The notes under the pieces: generated by a model
Database searches by the model: none
What the model was told of the DNA's origin: nothing
Seen by the model: the letters and a program-made list of their open reading frames with translations, nothing else
DNA from: an uncultured Prevotella sp.
GTDB taxonomy: Bacteria > Bacteroidota > Bacteroidia > Bacteroidales > Bacteroidaceae
NCBI GenBank assembly: GCA_946404925.1
Contig: CAMJFM010000007.1
Span: 2,662-66,661, forward strand
Direction of reading: 5' to 3'
Length of the DNA: 64,000 nt
In this document: positions 8,938-21,418 of the stretch, piece after piece
Position numbering within the stretch: the stretch's first letter is position 1
How the letters are laid out: each line of letters opens with the position of its first letter
Position numbers and translations under genes: made by a program

Positions 8938-11037
8938 TTATCCTACCTTGAGACACATCATGGTGAGGTCGTCGTTAGGATCGGCTCCATCACGATGCTC
9001 CTCTACCTGGCGCTTCAACGTCTCAACCACCTGCATGGCATTGGTGAAACGAGTCTCACGGAGAACATCGAGCATATGCTCATCGCCGAATCGCTCCAGC
9101 ATTGGGTTCTCGGCCTCATTCAGACCATCGGTATAAATGAAGAGCGGTTTACCCTTGATACTCTCAATGAACTCGCCCTCGAACTCGAGGCCAGCCCACA
9201 ATCCGATAGGAGCATTTGGTACCATCTGGAGGAAATTACCACCATCGGCATCGCCGCCAAGTACAGGGGGATTATGACCAGCATTACAGAAGTCAAGACG
9301 ACCGGTATTAATATCAACCAAACCTATGAACATCGTAATGAACATACCATTCTCGTTATTCTCGGTAAGCTCATCGTTGATACGGCTACAAATCTCAGCT
9401 GGTGAATAGTGATGCTTGGCCATTGCACGGAACAAGCGGATTACTTGAGCCATGAAGAGCGAAGCAGGAACACCTTTACCCGATACGTCGCCGATAGCAA
9501 AGTACAGGTGATTCTTCTCCATAAAGTAATCGTAGAGGTCACCACCAACCTCCTTTGCAGGAGTCATCGACGCAAAGAGATCAAGTCCCTCGCTTTCAAG
9601 ATTACCGGCAGGAATCATTGACATCTGGATGTCGCGGGCAATTCGGAGTTCGCTCTCAATACGCTCACGTGCTGTTGTAGCCTCTTCAAGCTGACCATAG
9701 GCCGACTGCAGAAGTTTCAGCGCCCTACGGTTATGAACAATGTAGAATCCGAAGAATCCTACCAGCAGCAAAACACCTACAACAAGGCCGATAAGGCGCT
9801 GACGAGAGATCTCGTGTTCACGCATCTCTACCTCCCACTGGCTACGTACCAGTTCTTCTTCCTTCTTATTGGTCTCGTAGATGGTTGCCATCTCGGCTGT
9901 ATCATCACGCTTTGACCATACCAAGGCCGAATCGTAAGCTGCGCAAATCTGATTGGCCACATAAAGAGCTGAGTCCTTATGGCCAGAACCATAGTTGGCA
10001 CGGAACTTTGGAACCAGATAAAGTCCGATGTTATCGAGCGTCAGCTTCATGCCACGGAACTCAATCCAGTGATCCAGCGTGCGGAAGTTCTTTGAAGCCT
10101 CCTCATAGCGATGAGCCATCATCAGATAGTCGTTGGCATCCAGCTTACCCTGCTCAGTCTGAGCATATTCGGTCTTCAGGAATCCATCGAAAGCCTCATC
10201 AGCTGCAGCACGATTACCTGCGGCATAAGATGTAAGCGCATTAAATAGACGTATACGCGCGCGATAGTGGTCACAGATCTCAGTATCGGCATCAGGGCGA
10301 AGACGATAGACGTAGAGAATAGAATCCGTACGATCATTCCACTTCTTACCCTCCTTGTAATGCTTAGTATTAAGACACGCTACGGTGATGTTGTTAATAC
10401 CGGTAATAGCCGAACGGATACGCGAGCCGTTTGTGTCCTTCTTAGAGATAGAGTTCTTGTAATGCCAGTAAGCATTCTCATAACTCTTAGAAGCATCTTT
10501 CTCGTTACCCAAGTACATCTCGGCCGAACCAATTGTGTAATAGAGTACGGCCAAGTCGCGCGACTGAGCCTTTGCGTTGCCCTCAAGCTTCTCTACAGCA
10601 GGAGTAGCCACACGCAGGGTAGCCTCATAGTCGGTCTTTACAGAATACATCTGGGCCAGTATACGGGCCGAGCGGCTGTAATAGAATACGTCCTTGTCGT
10701 CTAGTTCGTTAACATCGAGCGCCTTCTTGTAATAGACCTCAGCAGCAGCTTTCTGCTTCTGGCTATTAAGTGCAGAACCACGCAAGAAGTTAGCTCTGAC
10801 CATCGAAATGTCTCCTGTCTTCTCCAAACTGTCTGCCAGGAAGAACTTACGGTCATAGTCTTTTGCATTGTCGGCTGCTACAATCATGCTATCAATAAGA
10901 CTTGACTTTATCGAGTCCTTAGCAGATTTACGGCTTTCACCTTTCCCAGAGCCCCCATCGCTACTTCCACAAGAAAAAGCGATTGCAGCCACCAGGAGAA
11001 GGGCAGCACCAACAGACCATTGTTTCAGTTGTTTCAT
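8938..11037 (-). CDS. Membrane sensor Ser/Thr phosphatase: TPR-like periplasmic domain, TM helix, coiled coil, SpoIIE/PP2C domain
   Basis: Lipobox-like IAFSC; TM LIGLVVGVLLLVGFFGFYIV; ERIESELRIARDIQ; PP2C motifs VGGDLYD, IGDVSGKG, YTDGLNE and DDLTM. Confidence 0.88.
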   Translation of the reverse strand: MKQLKQWSVGAALLLVAAIAFSCGSSDGGSGKGESRKSAKDSIKSSLIDSMIVAADNAKDYDRKFFLADSLEKTGDISMVRANFLRGSALNSQKQKAAAEVYYKKALDVNELDDKDVFYYSRSARILAQMYSVKTDYEATLRVATPAVEKLEGNAKAQSRDLAVLYYTIGSAEMYLGNEKDASKSYENAYWHYKNSISKKDTNGSRIRSAITGINNITVACLNTKHYKEGKKWNDRTDSILYVYRLRPDADTEICDHYRARIRLFNALTSYAAGNRAAADEAFDGFLKTEYAQTEQGKLDANDYLMMAHRYEEASKNFRTLDHWIEFRGMKLTLDNIGLYLVPKFRANYGSGHKDSALYVANQICAAYDSALVWSKRDDTAEMATIYETNKKEEELVRSQWEVEMREHEISRQRLIGLVVGVLLLVGFFGFYIVHNRRALKLLQSAYGQLEEATTARERIESELRIARDIQMSMIPAGNLESEGLDLFASMTPAKEVGGDLYDYFMEKNHLYFAIGDVSGKGVPASLFMAQVIRLFRAMAKHHYSPAEICSRINDELTENNENGMFITMFIGLVDINTGRLDFCNAGHNPPVLGGDADGGNFLQMVPNAPIGLWAGLEFEGEFIESIKGKPLFIYTDGLNEAENPMLERFGDEHMLDVLRETRFTNAMQVVETLKRQVEEHRDGADPNDDLTMMCLKVG

Positions 11038-13574: not shown

Positions 13575-14390
13575 ATGAGATCTATTAATAAGATTATTTC
13601 AATTACACTTCTGGGGCTGTTATTCCCACTGACCATTGGTGCTCAGAACAAACATTTTGAGGGCGAGATAACATACAACATGTCTATTGCTCTCGACAAG
13701 ACTGCGCGCAAATTCCTGAAAGGAAGTGATGGAGCCTACACAATGAAGACTATCTACAAAAATGGTGACGAACTTTGTCATGAAGATTATTTCGGAATGA
13801 TCACCCTGACATCCAGAAACAAGGATTCTGTCTACATGTATCTCCCCGAGATAAAGAAAGGTTACAAATGTTCATACTCTGCTTCGGTCACAAACTTCAA
13901 GGAATCCAGGACAGTTAACGAAAGTTCGGTTAAAGAAACTGGCGAGACCAAAGATATGTATGGCATAACCTTTAAGAGATTTAAGGGCACCGAGATATTA
14001 GAAGCCGATATGCTTGTAGCCAGAATTCCTATGACCGAGGAGCACGACTATTGGGTTTGCACCGATTACGACGAGAACTGGCTGATGAGCATCCGTATTC
14101 CAGGCATGATTCTCAGTCTCGATTGGTTTGCTAAGGGAAAAATACCCATTCTTGGCGAAATGACCCAACATTTCGATATGAGCATCAAGGAACTGAAGGC
14201 TCGCGAAGTCAGCGATGATGAGTTTGCCATACCCGGTGATATCTCTTTTACTACGGTCAGCGACATGAATACTGCCGAGGCCAAGTTGAAGAAGGATCAT
14301 AAGAAACTCATGAAGTCGAAGGGCAAGAAAGTGGGCGAGAATATCCAGACCCGTGGTGCAGGTAAGACAAAAGGCGACTGGGACTTCTAA
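13575..14390 (+). CDS. Secreted hypothetical protein, DUF4412/GLPGLI-like fold suspected
   Basis: Signal peptide, then FEGEITYNM; pattern YMYLPEIKKGY...GITFKRFKG...YWV...IPGMIL. Confidence 0.5.
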   Translation: MRSINKIISITLLGLLFPLTIGAQNKHFEGEITYNMSIALDKTARKFLKGSDGAYTMKTIYKNGDELCHEDYFGMITLTSRNKDSVYMYLPEIKKGYKCSYSASVTNFKESRTVNESSVKETGETKDMYGITFKRFKGTEILEADMLVARIPMTEEHDYWVCTDYDENWLMSIRIPGMILSLDWFAKGKIPILGEMTQHFDMSIKELKAREVSDDEFAIPGDISFTTVSDMNTAEAKLKKDHKKLMKSKGKKVGENIQTRGAGKTKGDWDF

Positions 14391-14412
14391 CAATCAATAA
14401 GGAACAACAGAA

Positions 14413-15624
14413 ATGAAGAAACTGCTAATAATCCTTGCATTGGGATTGATGGTCCAGACCAGCTTTGCCCAAGACGATGAGAACTACAAGTATATGAGAG
14501 GTTCGCTCTGCATCATGATGGTAGAGCACCCCACACTTGAATTCAACGACCAGATTGAGAAGGTCTTTGAATCTATGCCCATCCCAAACCGCTTCAACAG
14601 TCACGATCTGGGTGTAAGAGTACTGAGTTTCCCAAACAACGACGACCAGGTGGCCAATCTGAAGATATTCAGCAACGAGAACCAGTTGGCCAAGCGTATT
14701 GTATCAAAGTGGTTTGGCCGCAACAAACATACCGGTTCGTTCAATACCGACCTGTTGAGAGAACGCGGACACTACAGCGCCACAAAGATAGATGTCAAGG
14801 CCGCCATGGCTCAGCAAAGAGGTATGGCCGTGCTCGAAGATATGGGCGAGAACCTGATTGGTCATACTTACTGGGTTGTAAACGACATCAGATACGTGAA
14901 TCAGGGCAACTTCTTCAAGAGTGTAAAAGACGTGGCCAGTGCAGCCATCAGCACAAAGGGCAACGGCACATCATCACTCGAAGCAACCTTAGGCATCGAT
15001 TTCGAAGATACAGCGATGGATCTTCTCGACAATATCAAGGGTTTCCGCGTAAAGATAACCTCTCACCTGTTCCGTCTGAAGTGGGATGAGGAGACATCTA
15101 ACACCTTCTATAGTCAGTATTATACTGAGACACCAGAGGAAGATGCCGATAAGGTTAGCGGATTCAAGGAGGATAACAACCTGTTCTCTATGGAATATGT
15201 TGGTTCGGTTACCAGCACCAGCAGCAAGACTTCTGTTTTAGGCGTTACCACCAACGAGCAGATGATTCGCAAGGTGTGTACACGTGCTCTCGACAAGAAC
15301 ATCGCCGACCTGCAGCATAAGTTTGCCGACTTCCGCATCAAGGCTCCGCTCATCAGCATAGAGCCACTAAAGGCATACGTTGGCATGAAGGAAGACATCA
15401 ACGAGAAATCACGCTACGAGGTTCTGGAAGCCGTTCCCGACGATCGTGGCGTAACTACCTATAAGCCAGTTGGAATTATCAAGCCTATCAAGGGCAAGAT
15501 ATGGGACAACCGATTTATGGCTGATGAAGAGAAGACGACCGAAGCTGCCCTCGACGGCACCTATTTCGAAGTGGTGTCGGGAAAGGGCTTCTACCCTGGA
15601 ATGCTTATTCGCGAGACTAAATAA
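14413..15624 (+). CDS. Secreted hypothetical protein with FlgT-C-like C-terminal beta domain
   Basis: Signal peptide; C-terminal AYVGMKEDINEKSRYEVL...KGFYPGMLIRE resembles FlgT/CsgG-associated C-terminal domains (by eye). Confidence 0.45.
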   Translation: MKKLLIILALGLMVQTSFAQDDENYKYMRGSLCIMMVEHPTLEFNDQIEKVFESMPIPNRFNSHDLGVRVLSFPNNDDQVANLKIFSNENQLAKRIVSKWFGRNKHTGSFNTDLLRERGHYSATKIDVKAAMAQQRGMAVLEDMGENLIGHTYWVVNDIRYVNQGNFFKSVKDVASAAISTKGNGTSSLEATLGIDFEDTAMDLLDNIKGFRVKITSHLFRLKWDEETSNTFYSQYYTETPEEDADKVSGFKEDNNLFSMEYVGSVTSTSSKTSVLGVTTNEQMIRKVCTRALDKNIADLQHKFADFRIKAPLISIEPLKAYVGMKEDINEKSRYEVLEAVPDDRGVTTYKPVGIIKPIKGKIWDNRFMADEEKTTEAALDGTYFEVVSGKGFYPGMLIRETK

Positions 15625-15657
15625 TCCTATTATTAACAACTTAAAACATTATTAATT

Positions 15658-16278
15658 ATGAAAGCTATTAAATTTTTTGCAGCATTATTCATGATGTTTG
15701 CCGTATCGGCAAGTGTAAATGCTCAGGAACTGAGTAAGGCTAACCAGAAGTTGCTGAAGAAGCAGCTGAAGGAGTTCAAGGCTGATGGTTGGAAGGTTAA
15801 CCCAGGTCAGCTACCACTTGAGACACAGCTCACCAAGGCATTCACCACCCAGTCAGAAGTTGACGCTATGGGTTACGAGGTTTGGATTGTAGGCGAAGGC
15901 CGCAGCACTGGTAGTGTTTACGACGCAGCCAGAACTCAGGCTATGACCGTTGCCAAGGGCGAAATTGCTACCAAACTGAGAACCGACATGACTTCTACCA
16001 TCGAGCAGGATCTGGCCAACGAGCAGTTCGGACCCGACGAGGCTGAGTCAATCGCAAAGACCATCGTAAGCCAGCAGGGCCGTAGTATCGACCAGCAGCT
16101 CAACCGTCCTAAGACTCTGATGGAGTGCTTCCGCAAGCTGCCTAATGGCAATACCGAGGTACTGATTCGTTGCGCTATCTCAGCCGACACAGTTAGCAAG
16201 CTCGCTAAGGCTGCTATCCAGCAGGCTCGCAGAGACAATCTGCTGAAGGATGTTGAAAGAGTTAAGAGTCAGAACTAA
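15658..16278 (+). CDS. Secreted LPP20-like protein
   Basis: Signal peptide without a lipobox; WIVGEGRSTG-SVYDAARTQAMTVAKGEIA helix pattern typical of LPP20-like domains. Confidence 0.55.
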   Translation: MKAIKFFAALFMMFAVSASVNAQELSKANQKLLKKQLKEFKADGWKVNPGQLPLETQLTKAFTTQSEVDAMGYEVWIVGEGRSTGSVYDAARTQAMTVAKGEIATKLRTDMTSTIEQDLANEQFGPDEAESIAKTIVSQQGRSIDQQLNRPKTLMECFRKLPNGNTEVLIRCAISADTVSKLAKAAIQQARRDNLLKDVERVKSQN

Positions 16279-17180
16279 TGAAGCAATTGCTCATACTGAT
16301 CACCATATTCTCCTGGGCACTGGGGACCAGCGCCCAGGAGAAGGGTAAGGTAAAAACGGTGGAGGATAGCTATCTCTACGAGATCCCCTCCAACGTTTCC
16401 TATGCCCAGGCTTGTCAGTTTGCGCTCGTAAAAGCGCAGAATGCAGCTATCGAGAAGGAGTTCGGTACGTCTGTAAGTCAAAACGATGTCGTTCTGATTT
16501 CAAACGAGAACGGCCAGTCGAGTACCTCCTTCCATTCCATGACAAGTGGTCAGGTGAGAGGTGTGTGGCTGGGCGATGTGGCCGAACCAAAATTTGAGCG
16601 CGTGCTCCACGAAGGCAGAGATCTGCTGAAGGTTACCGTTAAGGGTAAGATCAGAGAACTGGTTACTGCTGGTGTTGAGTTCGAGGCCAAACCACTACGT
16701 GTCCAGCCAGACAAGAAACTCGTGTCCGACACCTTTAAGAATGGTGAGGACTTTTTCCTTTATTTCAAGTCACCCGTCGATGGATATCTTACAGTTTTCC
16801 TGTTCGACATCCTAACCAATCAGGTATTCTGCATGCTGCCCTATCAGAGTTCGGGCAAGGGTTCCTTTGCCGTTACCCACGACAAGGAGTACTACCTGTT
16901 CTCGGCAGCAAAGGCCGATCCTAACGAAGGCGAGGTCGACGAGGTTGTACTTACCTGTACAGAGGGGAATACCGAAGAATACAATAACCTATATGTAATC
17001 TTCTCGCCTAATAACTATGCAAAAATAAGCTCTAAGGTTGGTCAGAAACAACTTACTGACGACCTGATAGTCCCGAGTTCGCTTGACTACAAGGAATTCA
17101 ACGCCTGGCTGACTAAGTATCAACAGAAGGACGAACAGATGCAAGTAGAACGCATCCCTATCAGAATCGAAAACAATTAA
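16278..17180 (+). CDS. Secreted protein with LPP20-like N-terminus and DUF4384 C-terminal domain
   Basis: FKNGEDFFLYFKSPVDGYLTVFLFD...VFCMLPY is DUF4384-like; start overlaps the previous stop (TAATG). Confidence 0.65.
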   Translation: MKQLLILITIFSWALGTSAQEKGKVKTVEDSYLYEIPSNVSYAQACQFALVKAQNAAIEKEFGTSVSQNDVVLISNENGQSSTSFHSMTSGQVRGVWLGDVAEPKFERVLHEGRDLLKVTVKGKIRELVTAGVEFEAKPLRVQPDKKLVSDTFKNGEDFFLYFKSPVDGYLTVFLFDILTNQVFCMLPYQSSGKGSFAVTHDKEYYLFSAAKADPNEGEVDEVVLTCTEGNTEEYNNLYVIFSPNNYAKISSKVGQKQLTDDLIVPSSLDYKEFNAWLTKYQQKDEQMQVERIPIRIENN

Positions 17181-17191
17181 ACTTATACAAT

Positions 17192-19564
17192 ATGAAAAAG
17201 CTATCGCTCACATTGCTCAGTCTGGTTCTGTTCATTGGCATGGCCTATGCACAGGGTCAGAGGCCTCAGCGACAAAGAGGCAGTCTGAAACAGCAGGTTC
17301 AGAACAAGCAGAAAATGAATTACGATGATTTCGTAAATGATGCCAACAAGAAGTACGAGGAATTCCGCGACAGCGTCAACAAGAAGTATGCCGACTTCAT
17401 GGAGAAGGCTTGGAAGGACTACCCCATCGAGGATGCTGTAGACCGCCCAAAGGAAGACGACCTCAAGCCTATCGAATACGACAAGATGACCGATGAGGAT
17501 TATCTTGAGGACATGAAGCGCCAGGAGGCCGAAAAGAAGCTGGCCGAAGAACAGAAGAAACGCGAAGAAGAGCAGGCCCGACTGATTGCCGAGAAGAAGA
17601 AGCAGGAGGAGGAGCAGGCCCGACTGGCTGCTGAACAGAAACAACGCGAAGAGGAGCAAGCCCGACTGCTGGAAGAGCAGAAAAAGCAGGAGGAAGAGCA
17701 GGCTCGCTTAGCTGCAGAGAAGAAGAAACAGGAGGAAGAACAGCTTCGCATAGCTGCTGAGAAGAAAAAACAGCAAGAAGAGAAGGCCCGCATACTGGCT
17801 GAAAAGAAAAAGCAGCAGGAAGAAAAGGCCAAACTGCTGGCTGAACAGAAGAAGCAGCAAGACGAGTTGAAACGTCTGGCCGCCCTGAAGAAGCAGCAGG
17901 AAGAGCAGCAGAAGTTGCTCGAGAAGCAGCAGAAGAAGGAAGAGCTGGCCAAACTGTTAGCCGAAAAGAAGAAGCAGGAAGAGCAGGAGAAGTTGGCTCT
18001 GCAGAAGCAGAAGGAACAGGAGCGCCAGCAGAAACTGCTTGAGGAGCAGCAGCGTAAGCAAGAAGAAGAGGCCCGACTGCTGGAAGAGAAGCTGAAAAAG
18101 CAGGAAGAGCAGCAGCGCCTGTTAGAGGAGAAGAAGAAGCAACAGGAAGAGAAAGCTCGTTTGCTGGCTGAAAAGAAAAAGCAGCAGGAAGAGCAGAAGC
18201 GCCTGTTAGAGGAGAAAAAGAAACAGCAGGAGGAGCAAAAACGTCTCTTAGCTGAACAAAAGAAGAAGCAGGAAGAGCAAGAGCGTCTGTTAGCTGAACA
18301 GAAGAAGAAGCAGGAGGAGCAGGAGCGCCAGCTGGCTGAGCAGAAAAAGAAGCAACAGGAAAAGCAGAGCAAGCCTATCGAGGCTGTAGTTGTGCCCGTT
18401 GTGCTCACCGTTCCCCCACAGCCAAAGCCACAGAATCCAATCGTAGAGAATAAGGTATCGATGGCTACCAGCGACTTCGATTTCTACGGCACACCTATGA
18501 AGGTAAGATGGGGTAATGCTGAGAAGTTCAAGCTTAATGGCACATCAAAGAAGGATATCTCTGATGCATTCCTCGAGCTCACCGATAAGGGTTACACCAA
18601 TCTGGTTCACGACTGTCTGGAGCTTCGCAAGGAGTACAAGCTTTGCGACTGGGCTTATTATAAGATGTTGCAGAACATCGCCGAGAAGGCTTGTGGCAAG
18701 GGCACCAACGAGGCCATCTTCCTCCAGGGTGTATTGCTCAACCAGTCAGGTTATCAGATTCGTTTCGCACTCGAAGACAATACCAAGCTGCACATCATGT
18801 CGCGCATGGACGGATTCCCATACGATCGCGGCTATTTGACCGCCGATGGCAAGTTGTTCTTCCTGATGGACGGTTGCAAGGCCAAGAACCTCACCGTTTG
18901 CGATGCAGCTTATCCTGGCGAGCAGATGATGAGCCTCGGAATAGCCGAACAGCCTGAATTAAAGAAGAATCTGTCGGACAAGCGTACCGTTATCTCGCGC
19001 TTCGTCAACGTATCGGCCGATATGCAGATGAACAAGAACCTGATGGACTTCTATACCGACTATCCTACATCTTACGATGGTAAGGACATGATGACTCGTT
19101 GGGCTTACTACGCTAACACCCCTGTAACAGCCGAGATAAAGGATAAGGTTTACCCACAGCTCAAGCAGCAGATAGGTAACGCACCAAAGCTGATGGCAGC
19201 CAACATGCTGCTGAACTGGGTTCAGATGGGACTTACCTATGCCTACGACGAAAAGGTTTGGGGTCACGACCGTGCATTCTTTGCCGAGGAGAGCTTGTTC
19301 TATCCATTCTGCGATTGTGAAGACCGTTCTATCCTCTTCTCACACCTCATTCGCGACCTGCTCGACCTCGATGTAGTACTAGTTTATTACCCAGGTCACC
19401 TCTACACAGCAGTATGCTTCAACGAGGATGTTACAGGCGATTACATCATGGTTAACGGTCGCAAGTTCACCGTTGCCGATCCTACCTATTACAATGCCAA
19501 CGTAGGTAAGACCATGAGTAAGATGGACAACTCGAAGGCCAAGGTAATCCTCCTGAAGCGATAA
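17192..19564 (+). CDS. Secreted transglutaminase-like (BTLCP/LapG-like) cysteine protease with a ~300-aa E/K/Q-rich helical insert
   Basis: Signal peptide; about 20 copies of a 14-aa repeat (EEEQARLLAEKKKQ-like); C-terminal DCEDRSILF...PGHLYTAV...VADPT supplies a Cys-His-Asp triad. Confidence 0.7.
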   Translation: MKKLSLTLLSLVLFIGMAYAQGQRPQRQRGSLKQQVQNKQKMNYDDFVNDANKKYEEFRDSVNKKYADFMEKAWKDYPIEDAVDRPKEDDLKPIEYDKMTDEDYLEDMKRQEAEKKLAEEQKKREEEQARLIAEKKKQEEEQARLAAEQKQREEEQARLLEEQKKQEEEQARLAAEKKKQEEEQLRIAAEKKKQQEEKARILAEKKKQQEEKAKLLAEQKKQQDELKRLAALKKQQEEQQKLLEKQQKKEELAKLLAEKKKQEEQEKLALQKQKEQERQQKLLEEQQRKQEEEARLLEEKLKKQEEQQRLLEEKKKQQEEKARLLAEKKKQQEEQKRLLEEKKKQQEEQKRLLAEQKKKQEEQERLLAEQKKKQEEQERQLAEQKKKQQEKQSKPIEAVVVPVVLTVPPQPKPQNPIVENKVSMATSDFDFYGTPMKVRWGNAEKFKLNGTSKKDISDAFLELTDKGYTNLVHDCLELRKEYKLCDWAYYKMLQNIAEKACGKGTNEAIFLQGVLLNQSGYQIRFALEDNTKLHIMSRMDGFPYDRGYLTADGKLFFLMDGCKAKNLTVCDAAYPGEQMMSLGIAEQPELKKNLSDKRTVISRFVNVSADMQMNKNLMDFYTDYPTSYDGKDMMTRWAYYANTPVTAEIKDKVYPQLKQQIGNAPKLMAANMLLNWVQMGLTYAYDEKVWGHDRAFFAEESLFYPFCDCEDRSILFSHLIRDLLDLDVVLVYYPGHLYTAVCFNEDVTGDYIMVNGRKFTVADPTYYNANVGKTMSKMDNSKAKVILLKR
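17513..18369 (+). repeat. Degenerate 42-nt (14-codon) coding tandem repeat region
   Basis: Recurrent gaagaagcaggaggaagagcag / gcccgactg units; the antisense shadow ORF is correspondingly Cys/Phe/Ser-periodic. Confidence 0.85.
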
Positions 19565-19568
19565 GCCT

Positions 19569-20774
19569 ATGAAGGTGCCCTTCTGGAATACAATAAAAGC
19601 GTGGATACGTCAGCGACGGAGATTGGTAACACTCTCCGTGCTGACTAGCACGGTTATCATCATATTTACCTATGTGATGGGTAACTCGGGCTATCCACTA
19701 CCAGGAGAAACGGGCGCCCTGAAGCAGATTACCGACTACAAGAAGTTTCTGGGCATGCAGATAGGCAACGTGCCCGATAGCATCCTGTTTGTCAACGTGT
19801 GTTACGACAAGATGCTCACACCTTACGAGGAAAACGAGGTGCCTGTGGGCAACATGGTTATTACCGACCGCGAGAAGCTGCTGCAGTTCCTCACCATAGC
19901 CAAGAAGGCCAACAACTACCGCTACATCTTTATGGATGTGTTCTTCGAAGAGGGCATGGAGACCGAGTACGACTCAGCACTCTTCCACACTATCACTTCG
20001 ATGGACCGTATCGTCATCCCCAAGCACAAGGGCGTAAACATGTGCGACACCACGCTCTATCAGAAGGCCGCTAATGCCGATTACGCCACCACCTGGCAGG
20101 CCCTCACTTTCTCGCGCTATCAGTACATACACGATGAGGACGAATCCGTGGCACTAAAGATTTATCAGGACCGCTTTGGTTCCGACATCAAGAAGCACAT
20201 GGGTGGATTGTGGTATACCGACAATGGCCGCTTGTGCCAGAATAGCGCCACGCTGTTGCTGCCTATCCGCATCACGGGCAGTCTGCTCGACGAGGAGGGA
20301 CAAGTGCGCGAGCGCAACTACATCTATCTGAGTGCCGACCTGCTCGACCTCGACGAGGTGATGCCCGTTAGCGAGCAGATTGAAGACAAGCTGATAGTGA
20401 TAGGCGACTTTAAGAGCGACGTACACTCCACGTTCCTTGGCATGCAGCCCGGATCGTCGATACTCTTCAATGGATATATAGCCCTATCGCAGGGTGCACA
20501 TCTGGTTAACTGGCCTTACATGGGTATACTGTTCGTCATCTACATCATCATCGGACTGTTCTACCTCTCGGGCCACTCCTTCTCATCGATGGTCATGAAC
20601 CCTTGGCTCAGCATCCTGCTATCGTTTCTCAGCACGGCTACGGTATTCCTGATTATAGCCCTTGTGGCCAGCTGGTACGATCTGGCGTTCAACATGTGGG
20701 TTCCCACTACCGTCTACTCTCTCTACGACACATTCATGCAGAAGTATAACATCTATAAAAATAAATCGAAATGA
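19569..20774 (+). CDS. CHASE2-like inner-membrane sensor lacking a cytoplasmic catalytic domain
   Basis: N-terminal TM; periplasmic IFMDVFF...LIVIGDF-SDVHSTFLG-QPGSSILFN (CHASE2-like); three C-terminal TM helices; very short cytoplasmic tail. Confidence 0.6.
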   Translation: MKVPFWNTIKAWIRQRRRLVTLSVLTSTVIIIFTYVMGNSGYPLPGETGALKQITDYKKFLGMQIGNVPDSILFVNVCYDKMLTPYEENEVPVGNMVITDREKLLQFLTIAKKANNYRYIFMDVFFEEGMETEYDSALFHTITSMDRIVIPKHKGVNMCDTTLYQKAANADYATTWQALTFSRYQYIHDEDESVALKIYQDRFGSDIKKHMGGLWYTDNGRLCQNSATLLLPIRITGSLLDEEGQVRERNYIYLSADLLDLDEVMPVSEQIEDKLIVIGDFKSDVHSTFLGMQPGSSILFNGYIALSQGAHLVNWPYMGILFVIYIIIGLFYLSGHSFSSMVMNPWLSILLSFLSTATVFLIIALVASWYDLAFNMWVPTTVYSLYDTFMQKYNIYKNKSK

Positions 20775-21418
20775 AACGACTACTCTTACTCAGTTGCCTT
20801 GGCATGTGGCTCAGCTACGCCAGTGCAGACAATTACAAGGTGCTGTTCGTCAACGATGCCAACCTTACTTATAATAATGGAAAAGCAGTCAAAGTGGGCG
20901 ACACCTTCAGCGATGTTGATGCCATCAAATGGCAGAAGGACAAGCAAGCCGTCAAGGTGTTCAACCTTACCACCAAGAAGCAGATGCTGATGCTTGGCAA
21001 GCAGTATATGCGCAAAACGGGTATGGAAGCACTCATCAGCAGCAAGCGCCTGTCTACCAACGACTTTATGGACACCAGCGATGCGCCTAAGACCATCTAC
21101 GAGAAGCTAGGCAGCGTGTTCGACAGTCAGTACGATCTGCTCGACCCCATCGAGCTTCCTGCTGATGTTGAGCTGAACGACAAGTGCTACTTCCAGGCCA
21201 CCTATAAGTATGGCGACACCATGCTCACCAAGAAGCTTAAGAGCAAGAACGGCAACACCGTTATCCTCGACAAGTCTATCTTCGAGGTTGATGGCAAGCA
21301 GTTAGGCCCTCGCGACGTCATCCTCTCCATCGAGTACGTCAACACCGAGGCTGGCATGCCCATCTTCGTTAAGGATGGCATCGAGGTAACCTACATCCCC
21401 GACACCCTCGACGAATAA
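20771..21418 (+). CDS. Secreted hypothetical protein (beta-rich N-terminus, loosely FecR-like)
   Basis: Signal peptide; ATGA overlap with the upstream stop; YKVLFVN...VKVGDTF. Confidence 0.5.
   Translation: MKRLLLLSCLGMWLSYASADNYKVLFVNDANLTYNNGKAVKVGDTFSDVDAIKWQKDKQAVKVFNLTTKKQMLMLGKQYMRKTGMEALISSKRLSTNDFMDTSDAPKTIYEKLGSVFDSQYDLLDPIELPADVELNDKCYFQATYKYGDTMLTKKLKSKNGNTVILDKSIFEVDGKQLGPRDVILSIEYVNTEAGMPIFVKDGIEVTYIPDTLDE

Follow-up and report, generated by a model that had tools for sequence, protein, structure and literature searches.

The 64,000-nt stretch of DNA from an uncultured rumen Prevotella analyzed here (the window) contains, at 17192..19564 of its + strand, an open reading frame (ORF) for a 790-amino-acid (aa) exported protein that is interrupted by a long helical repeat tract. 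This 906-nt tract probably encodes a two-armed antiparallel coiled-coil stalk, likely an intramolecular hairpin, that evolves in length by gaining and losing balanced units of 14 aa. What could pass for a filler-like helical tract is in fact strictly constrained, its two arms being equal to the residue over an eight-fold range of lengths.

The ends of the tract are marked by two copies of the 12-mer CAAGCCTATCGA, the only ones in the window. They occupy 17464-17475 and 18370-18381 of the + strand, with a spacing of 906 nt and in the same codon phase. Both copies are in frame with the ORF 17192..19564 and encode K92-P-I-E95 and K394-P-I-E397, the first C of either copy being the third base of the preceding codon. 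An earlier note on this DNA had described this perfect direct repeat, and it is real at both positions, in its spacing and in the in-frame KPIE at either end. The same note had counted about 20 degenerate 14-aa repeats between the copies, which was borne out by repeat finding: Tandem Repeats Finder returned arrays with periods of 42, 84 and 126 nt, and the 42-nt unit is present in 14–17 in-register copies of 60–77% identity, giving about 20 degenerate 14-aa units. The tract and its borders comprise the following features.

17464..17475, + strand: first copy of the 12-mer, which encodes motif A (K92-P-I-E95)
17483..17923, + strand: left (ascending) stalk arm, residues 98-244, with the unit consensus RLAAEKKKQEEEQA
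17704..17745, + strand: left-arm 42-nt unit missing in the commonest allele, that of 762 aa, from the DNA alignment with L002 and the protein alignment; its position within the array depends on the alignment
17894..17947, + strand: conserved, non-repeat centre motif QQEEQQKLLE/KQQKKEEL (slash at the midpoint), residues 235-252, the A-to-B midpoint in the balanced classes and a putative hairpin tip or dyad
17924..18361, + strand: right (descending) stalk arm, residues 245-390, with the unit consensus RLL(A/E)EKKKKQEEQE
18200..18241, + strand: right-arm 42-nt unit missing in the 762-aa allele, the compensating partner of the left-arm unit, from the DNA (L002) and protein alignments
18370..18381, + strand: second copy of the 12-mer, which encodes motif B (K394-P-I-E397, with AVVVP after it)

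Residues 98-390 consist of 26% E, 23% K, 20% Q, 13% L, 10% A and 7% R, and there is no Pro or Gly anywhere in residues 94-394. Hydrophobic residues recur with a period of 13.95 residues.

The evidence for a two-armed stalk comes from the way in which its two halves change length together. Measured between motif A and the centre motif (left) and between the centre motif and motif B (right), the arms are paired as (45,61), (115,131), (129,145), (143,159; the window protein), (241,257), (269,285) and (409,425) residues. The right arm exceeds the left by 16 in every one of these pairs and the arms change by multiples of 14, so that each arm gains or loses units of two heptads, 14 aa or 42 nt. In a separate midpoint test, which did not depend on a regular expression and in which the residue context at the middle of the A-to-B interval was printed, the midpoint fell on the same residue of '..QQK.LE/.QQK..EL' in 158 of 162 sequences, which represented classes of 106, 246, 274, 302, 330, 386 (two proteins), 498, 554 and 834 aa. 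Balance was likewise seen in each of the 13 complete metagenome alleles, which added a 470-aa class. Indels symmetric about a conserved tip, as in hairpins of the methyl-accepting chemotaxis protein (MCP) type, are thus seen across ten length classes, from 106 to 834 aa. Within the species, each step from the 790-aa to the 762-aa and then to the 734-aa protein removes one 14-aa unit from each arm. With random placement of units, exact balance would be expected with a probability of about 0.11–0.25 per class; for five independent events, p is about 1e-3 to 1e-4 (a rough estimate). An antiparallel arrangement of two helices requires equal arms about a fixed centre, because the chain has to come back to the base, the meeting point of motifs A and B and the two globular parts.

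The spacing from motif A to motif B takes the following values.

0-type: L005
106 aa: P0122
246, 274 and 302 aa: strains with C-terminal domains 98–99% identical
330 aa: P0271
386 aa: P0272 and P0277
470 aa: L084
498 aa: L001 and L088
554 aa: L003
834 aa: L004

The insert was rightly described in the earlier note as length-variable, with spacings of 246, 274 and 302 aa within the species and 0 to 834 aa between species; alignment of orthologs revealed stalk-less members as well as members with stalks of many lengths. Two 762-aa proteins, P0008 and P0032, have a left arm of the short type (115 residues), a right arm of the long type (159 residues) and the same total as the commonest allele; they look as though a 734-type and a 790-type allele had recombined close to the centre.

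A hairpin is also what structure prediction returned for a short-stalk ortholog, P0122, which is 58% identical to the window protein. Its AlphaFold model, with a mean predicted local distance difference test score (pLDDT) of 90.7, a predicted TM-score (pTM) of 0.85 and stalk pLDDT of 80–91, consists in this region of a helix at 93-143, a break at K144-K145 within the homologous centre motif and a second helix at 146-183. The tip of this hairpin lies 2–3 residues from the midpoint derived from the sequences (E141/Q142). The stalk is all-helical, as had been proposed in the earlier note. In the hairpin, the Ala-rich clusters of the left arm (A-R-L-A-A) would lie opposite the Leu-Leu clusters of the right arm (R-L-L). 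Such a combination of small and large residues would suit close antiparallel packing around a sparse, Alacoil-like core.

Equal arms could be accounted for just as well by an antiparallel homodimeric rod, in which two continuous helices of ~43 nm pair head-to-tail with the dyad at the centre motif, so that the left arm of either chain would pack against the other chain's right arm, each end of the rod combining the N-terminal module (N-module) of one chain with the C-terminal domain of the other. This arrangement would fit a centre that has no Gly, Pro or other obvious turn residues, as well as the AlphaFold model of the window protein, which is helical through the centre. It is at odds with the P0122 monomer, modelled as a confident hairpin with its break in the centre motif, and with the stalk-less relatives, which link N-module and C-terminal domain in cis through a short linker with both base motifs, an arrangement that insertion of a hairpin preserves without any dimerization. 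Because the monomer model folds back and the stalk-less relatives join the globular parts in cis, we rank the homodimer second and consider it unlikely; the arms would more plausibly pair within one chain.

In the window protein, a hairpin of about 145 residues per arm would be 21–22 nm long (at 0.15 nm per residue). Each additional unit per arm would add 2.1 nm, for a range of about 7 to 62 nm within the clade. We propose that the stalk was inserted in the linker between the N-module and a C-terminal transglutaminase/LapG-like domain and that it gains and loses 42-nt units (14 aa, two heptads). Only equal-arm alleles would persist because both ends of the hairpin must reach the same base, where motifs A and B lie beside the enzyme body. 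On the most economical view, the stalk might then project from the enzyme body as a rigid arm whose conserved tip docks on a partner or a surface, and its length might determine how far the enzyme reaches, at about 2.1 nm per step. The catalytic domain might be repositioned by the stalk across the periplasm, as suggested in the earlier note. A rapidly evolving molecular ruler of this kind, with a docking tip and with a length of 0 to about 60 nm that is tuned by two-heptad indels compensating each other, so as to set the enzyme's site of action within the envelope or its distance beyond it, is a tentative suggestion that we would not favor at present. Equally speculative are its possible partners, among them the CHASE2 membrane protein encoded in the operon and the LPP20/DUF4384-like proteins. 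If the ruler were real, the length alleles of different strains would reflect selection on the geometry of the envelope or capsule. In any case, the series of stalks of about 7, 18, 20, 22, 28, 36, 40 and 60 nm on a conserved enzyme constitutes a natural experiment on reach and spacing in the envelope.

Several observations weigh against the hairpin or its proposed role. Four of the 162 sequences in the midpoint test are unbalanced: P0008 and P0032, and also P0090 and P0054, which have 8- and 13-aa deletions. The length data derive almost entirely from short-read metagenome assemblies; misassembly of repeats, for its part, would not yield exact arm balance. The model of the window protein (pLDDT 84.5, pTM 0.69) contains stalk helices at 98-173, 191-327 and 331-390 (76, 137 and 60 residues), and its breaks, at 166-190 and 310-338 with pLDDT of 42–55, avoid the centre. 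This model is either evidence against a clean hairpin or an expression of the limits of prediction for a 290-residue repeat. There is a single A/L cluster per 14 residues, with alternate heptads polar, in place of a canonical a/d core, and the composition of the stalk resembles that of single-alpha-helix (ER/K) domains. A mirror-register test of the hydrophobic clusters peaked at -5 and +9 (period 14) relative to the exact midpoint and was not discriminating; the offset is compatible with a slightly asymmetric tip. In the P0217 group, which has a helical stalk of its own, the arms on either side of EQEQLKQKELE agree within 1–9 residues in four of six members, and the remaining two show differences of 61 and 93 residues. 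The repeats of that group are near-identical 8-mers prone to misassembly, and we counted them neither as confirmation nor as refutation of arm balance, so the rule is, on the available sequences, firmly established only for the clade of the window. Finally, stalks of 40–60 nm, as in L003 and L004, could not stand upright in the periplasm, which makes a reach function doubtful for these two; such stalks may instead lie along the membrane or work extracellularly, e.g. on outer-membrane vesicles.

Some of these features would be expected if the tract were a single alpha-helix of the ER/K type or a rod, about 43 nm long, that serves as a spacer between the N-module and the catalytic domain and whose length is set by the total number of units alone. 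E, K, Q and R make up 74% of the stalk residues, there are 0.6 pairs of opposite charges at i/i+3 and i/i+4 per residue, hydrophobic clusters number only one per 14 residues, a long unbroken helix crosses the centre in the window model, and the total lengths are quantized. However, a spacer has no need of residue-exact equal halves over ten classes from 106 to 834 aa, and it should tolerate single units, whereas the totals shift only by 28 aa, that is, by double units. The hydrophobic period of 14 residues, the hairpin in the model of the ortholog (pTM 0.85) and the pTM of 0.69 for the window protein, which is high for two domains capping a free rod, also argue against it. A single continuous 43-nm helix, as had been calculated in the earlier note, is therefore quite improbable, given that the halves co-vary exactly about the centre and that P0122 is modelled as a hairpin. 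A Z-shaped fold of three helices, suggested by the breaks in the window model, was rejected: it would not impose balance about a fixed centre, and those breaks are at pLDDT 42–55.

The stalk sits in a hypervariable linker that normally comprises ~73 residues and is the family's hot spot for length change. Among 141 cluster representatives and 77 genome loci, the distance from W74 to the FYGT motif has its mode at 71–78 aa (69 aa in L005), and the tail of the distribution consists of Pro-rich expansions of up to 230 aa and, in a few lineages, of helical E/K/Q/R expansions of 150–890 aa. In P0130, P0167, P0153, L070, L057 and L038 the linker has expanded as Pro-rich (20–37% Pro) tandem tracts of up to about 230 aa that resemble TonB-like spacers. 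Independent E/K/Q/R stalks are found at the same position of the linker: P0182 has the heptad EQERIKA, the P0217 group (P0217 and P0319-P0325) has 8/16-aa units RQKELELQ/EEQRRKEEEALRQK and total lengths from 559 to 896 aa at 75–89% identity of the C-terminal domain, and L067 is listed with them as another carrier of an independent helical stalk. Both P0217 and P0182 have an atypical segment at the stalk midpoint.

Such a pattern might suggest a neutral low-complexity expansion, i.e. a slippage-prone, unconstrained linker with no specific architecture or function; this is the region that varies most in the family and that elsewhere has grown as Pro-rich tracts, and the E/K/Q/R expansions of other lineages are independent and have other unit lengths. 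Against neutrality, the arms of the window's clade are exactly balanced, the centre and the base are conserved, and alleles that break the frame or the balance are not seen at appreciable frequency. Moreover, the units have diverged to 60–77% nucleotide identity, which indicates an old, maintained array and not recent slippage. Neutral expansion is thus very unlikely.

The earlier note had also taken the stretch between the 12-mers for an excisable cassette, in which recombination between the two copies would remove the stalk in frame and switch the protein between long and short isoforms. A perfect in-frame direct repeat exactly at both ends of the stalk is what such a mechanism would need, and the size given for the product is correct (790 - 302 = 488 aa). 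The two KPIE sites nevertheless belong to motifs that are conserved separately in stalk-less homologs. The syntenic, stalk-less ortholog L005 (64% identity) keeps both base motifs, 10 residues apart (...DVPVKYDKEKDKDEEKVIEAEIIP...), which shows that the two sites are distinct parts of the protein and not a duplication made by insertion. Identity of the 12-mers is already lost in L002 (92% identity), which has ATT at one site and ATC at the other; L001 has KAIE at the 3' site, and L003 and L004 show several base differences. Identical flanks are missing from most alleles and orthologs: among the 13 complete metagenome alleles, only two (L087 and L097, both of the 302-aa class) have them, and their 12-mer, CAAACCTATCGA, is unlike that of the window. 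Given KPIE twice, local codon usage yields a probability of about 0.02–0.08 for identical K, P and I codons plus an identical preceding base, and the perfect 12-nt identity is therefore unremarkable. In L087 and L097 the same synonymous AAG-to-AAA change is seen at both KPIE sites. L088 and L094 have AAA at site B alone, so the pattern in L087 and L097 may be due to chance and not to conversion from flank to flank.

Traces of excision were also absent from the contigs and homologs covered. The junction expected of the 906-nt deletion allele, searched for with a degenerate probe (..DD[LIV]KPIEAVVVP..), matched no metagenome contig; an equivalent probe for the intact left junction matched 17. 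There is no 488-aa form among the 120 nearest homologs, and the excision product would have a linker of only 56 aa between W74 and FYGT, as compared with minima of 67 aa among the 141 cluster representatives and 69 aa among the 77 genome loci. In addition, 12 nt is very short for efficient recombination, and the operon contains no recombinase. The perfect 12-nt direct repeat is, judging from these comparisons, a by-product of two conserved base motifs that share codons in this lineage and not a recombination site, and we regard excision as extremely improbable. The excision idea thus gives way to a testable structural rule.

The remaining parts of the protein are as follows.

17192..19564, + strand: gene for the 790-aa exported protein, with signal peptide, N-module, stalk, Pro-rich linker and transglutaminase-like domain, from the ORF list
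17192..17251, + strand: signal peptide of the signal peptidase I (SPI) type, MKKLSLTLLSLVLFIGMAYA with QGQ after the cleavage site, read from the sequence
17282..17407, + strand: N-terminal helical module, residues 31-72, with 11-aa repeats (NKKYEEFRDSV / NKKYADFMEKA); AlphaFold helix 31-72 with pLDDT 83–98, and 33-nt direct repeats
18383..18469, + strand: Pro-rich linker VVVPVVLTVPPQPKPQNPIVEN..., family consensus P.P.PQP.P..PI.E
18470..19561, + strand: C-terminal globular domain, residues 427-790, pLDDT >90, from AlphaFold models and Foldseek
19313..19324, + strand: D708-C709-E710-D711, putative catalytic Cys with flanking acidic residues, from conserved columns of 114 and 118 members
19397-19399, + strand: H736, putative His of the triad, from a conserved column
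19478-19480, + strand: D763, putative Asp of the triad, from a conserved column

The signal peptide has no lipobox Cys, and its removal exposes a Gln at the new N-terminus that is at least 90% conserved in the family alignment, in agreement with the Bacteroidetes Q-rule for the residue that follows signal peptide cleavage (PMC5837995). Since an SPI signal peptide without a lipobox combines with a fit to the Q-rule, the protein is predicted to be exported by Sec and signal peptidase I and so to be periplasmic or located further out. Its C-terminus is taken up by the catalytic core, which leaves it without a type-IX C-terminal domain. The N-module ends at W74, a nearly invariant residue (at least 90% conserved). 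At 17311-17398 of the window this module contains three 33-nt (11-aa) repeats, MNYDDFVNDA / NKKYEEFRDSV / NKKYADFMEKA, which are hendecad-like and have a conserved Y..F.

The gene is single-copy in its own genome. A word-indexed search identified 3902 homologs, which form 2314 clusters at 50% identity and are spread across Bacteroidales, with Prevotellaceae, Bacteroidaceae, Muribaculaceae, Paludibacteraceae, Parabacteroides and Coprobacter among the carriers. An alignment of 114 members revealed a common plan, namely signal peptide, N-module up to W74, motif A, a short connector, motif B, a Pro-rich PQP segment and a domain of ~360 aa. In the family consensus, motif A reads pKe..v.P[IV][VE]Y and motif B kP[IV].e.V.P, and both are predicted to form short beta-strands at the base of the stalk (DSSP 94-95 and 395-400). 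Searches of Pfam (E up to 10) and NCBIfam with the stalk protein gave nothing meaningful, nor did PDB searches with the sequence, with a profile or with just the C-terminal 110 residues. A match to TrlF, at 22.8 bits versus a cut-off of 350, was discarded as a low-complexity artefact. One source labels an ortholog 'Transglutaminase-like superfamily', and a literature search returned no description of the family or its stalk. Attention is thereby drawn to a family that has no Pfam model although it comprises over 2,300 clusters (50% identity) in abundant gut and rumen bacteria. Two members, P0138 (793 aa) and P0264 (763 aa), have an extra C-terminal extension of ~250 aa beyond the transglutaminase-like domain, and P0355, P0362, P0387 and P0429 are listed with Pfam PF14903.

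The C-terminal domain was modelled with pLDDT >90 in both the window protein and P0122. In both cases the top Foldseek matches were exclusively proteins of the transglutaminase fold: LapG (4U65_E, 4FGQ), 3ISR, PNGase, 3KD4, vasohibin and transglutaminases. Probabilities reached 1.00, with E-values no better than 4e-3 and TM-scores normalized to the target of at most 0.46. According to the models, the transglutaminase/LapG-like papain fold occupies roughly the last 120–150 residues of the domain. In the alignment of 114 members, D708, E710, D711 and H736 show no variation and conservation of C709 and D763 is at least 90%, a pattern repeated in an alignment of 118. A transglutaminase/LapG-like Cys-His-Asp enzyme is a reasonable assignment at the level of the predicted fold, and the protein may act as a protease. 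The name 'protease gene' used in the earlier note reflects the fold: it agrees with fold matches that are consistent, if weak, and with a conserved Cys-His-Asp set, and it finds no counterpart in Pfam, NCBIfam or PDB sequence matches.

The stalk gene lies within a tight operon (13575-21418), where it is surrounded by seven closely packed, co-directional genes without Pfam matches. Of the genes upstream, g206 (15658-16278) has homologs that accompany the stalk gene in 36 of 80 Bacteroidales loci, and g300 (16278-17180), which has a sub-threshold match to DUF4384 (E = 0.013), in 30 of 80. The gene downstream (19569-20774) encodes a 401-aa membrane protein whose ortholog in L005 (52% identity) gives a match to CHASE2 above the Pfam threshold (E = 1.9e-8) and has no output domain. 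In the L005 locus, the CHASE2 ortholog is located at 9303-10592, and a caspase-domain protein with a signal peptide and Sel1 repeats (Peptidase_C14, E = 4.8e-24; L005 7387-8763) is encoded together with a 167-aa protein between the transglutaminase-like and CHASE2 genes. The same two genes are separated by 1.6–3 kb of extra DNA in L003 and L004, as against a gap of only 5 nt in the window. The operon that houses the family is conserved and also encodes CHASE2 and DUF4384-like proteins, joined in relatives by caspase-like ones; a search for literature on CHASE2 with transglutaminase-like proteins in Bacteroidetes found nothing on this system.

Several members appear to be fusions (P0207, 1024 aa; P0252, 1002 aa; also P0128, P0136, P0146, P0151, P0154, P0156 and P0162). 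One type combines an N-terminal region of multiple transmembrane segments, a beta-rich domain of ~130 aa, the N-module and the transglutaminase-like domain, and the other has only the beta-rich domain ahead of the family protein. The extra parts of P0207 gave marginal BLASTP matches (E = 0.08–0.11) to the products of the downstream genes 19569-20774 and 20771-21418. If real, these fusions would link the three gene products and put the enzyme at the inner membrane, on its periplasmic face.

As regards its enzyme domain, the stalk protein is best compared with LapG and the BTLCP family, transglutaminase-like cysteine proteases that are periplasmic and depend on calcium (PDB 4FGQ, 4U65; PMC4359373, PMC4866520). 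Both are exported, both have the triad in the order Cys-His-Asp, and LapG too has acidic residues by the catalytic Cys, comparable to the D-C-E-D of the stalk protein; LapG-D139 binds calcium (PMC4866520), and the invariant D708, E710 and D711 around C709 may be an indirect hint of peptidase or transamidase activity and of calcium dependence in the stalk protein. LapG also obtained the highest Foldseek probabilities against the models (0.94–1.00), and the adjacent CHASE2 membrane protein is loosely analogous to the LapD receptor. In contrast to that system, the stalk protein has no sequence match to Peptidase_C93/BTLCP or any other Pfam model, the Foldseek E-values to LapG are only 4e-3 to 7e-3, and the domain of ~360 aa includes large extra N-terminal lobes. 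LapG has neither N-module nor stalk, and no LapA-like adhesin or cyclic di-GMP receptor was identified for the stalk protein. Two transglutaminase-like proteins of unknown function from Bacteroidota are also among the best structural matches, 3ISR, a putative cysteine protease of Cytophaga hutchinsonii, and 3KD4 (BDI_1141) of Parabacteroides distasonis. They differ from the stalk protein in having other accessory domains and no coiled-coil stalk, with identities of 8–12% and TM-scores of 0.14–0.33.

As regards the stalk, ER/K domains and TolA domain II are likewise E/K/R/Q-rich, Pro/Gly-free, highly helical repeat spacers. They are single extended helices, so their halves need not be equal, whereas the arms of the stalk co-vary exactly. 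TolA is an Ala-rich protein of the cell envelope that is anchored by an N-terminal transmembrane helix. The stalk protein had been likened to it in the earlier note, a comparison that fails on a cleavable SPI signal peptide (Gln at +1), the absence of a membrane anchor and the absence of a match to TolA domains. The SMC/Rad50 arms and the ~16-nm helical hairpin of colicin Ia share with the proposed hairpin a chain that runs out along one helix and back along the other, bringing the flanking domains together at the base. Their tips bear a hinge, a zinc hook or a receptor-binding domain, all of them folded; the tip of the stalk, in contrast, is only a conserved stretch of helix of roughly 20–70 aa. 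Nor do those arms have tandem 14-aa repeats or length polymorphism between strains.

The closest parallel is the cytoplasmic hairpin of MCPs, for which PMC5907407 (citing Alexander & Zhulin 2007) gives length classes from 24H to 64H that differ by symmetric heptad indels about a conserved tip. Like the hairpin proposed for the stalk, it is a long antiparallel coiled coil with indels of heptad multiples in both arms. The two have no sequence homology, and the four-helix dimer is known from the MCP side of the comparison. The stalk also differs in being an insertion in an exported enzyme and not part of a membrane receptor, in its 14-aa tandem repeats with an indel unit of two heptads per arm, in its sparse core of one hydrophobic cluster per 14 residues and in its far wider range of lengths (about 7 to 60 nm), and its balanced alleles segregate within one species. 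The symmetric-indel rule known from chemoreceptors is thus applied by the stalk in a new setting. As with the heptad classes of chemoreceptors, comparative sequence data alone would reveal a three-dimensional topology, here in an exported enzyme and on a within-species timescale.

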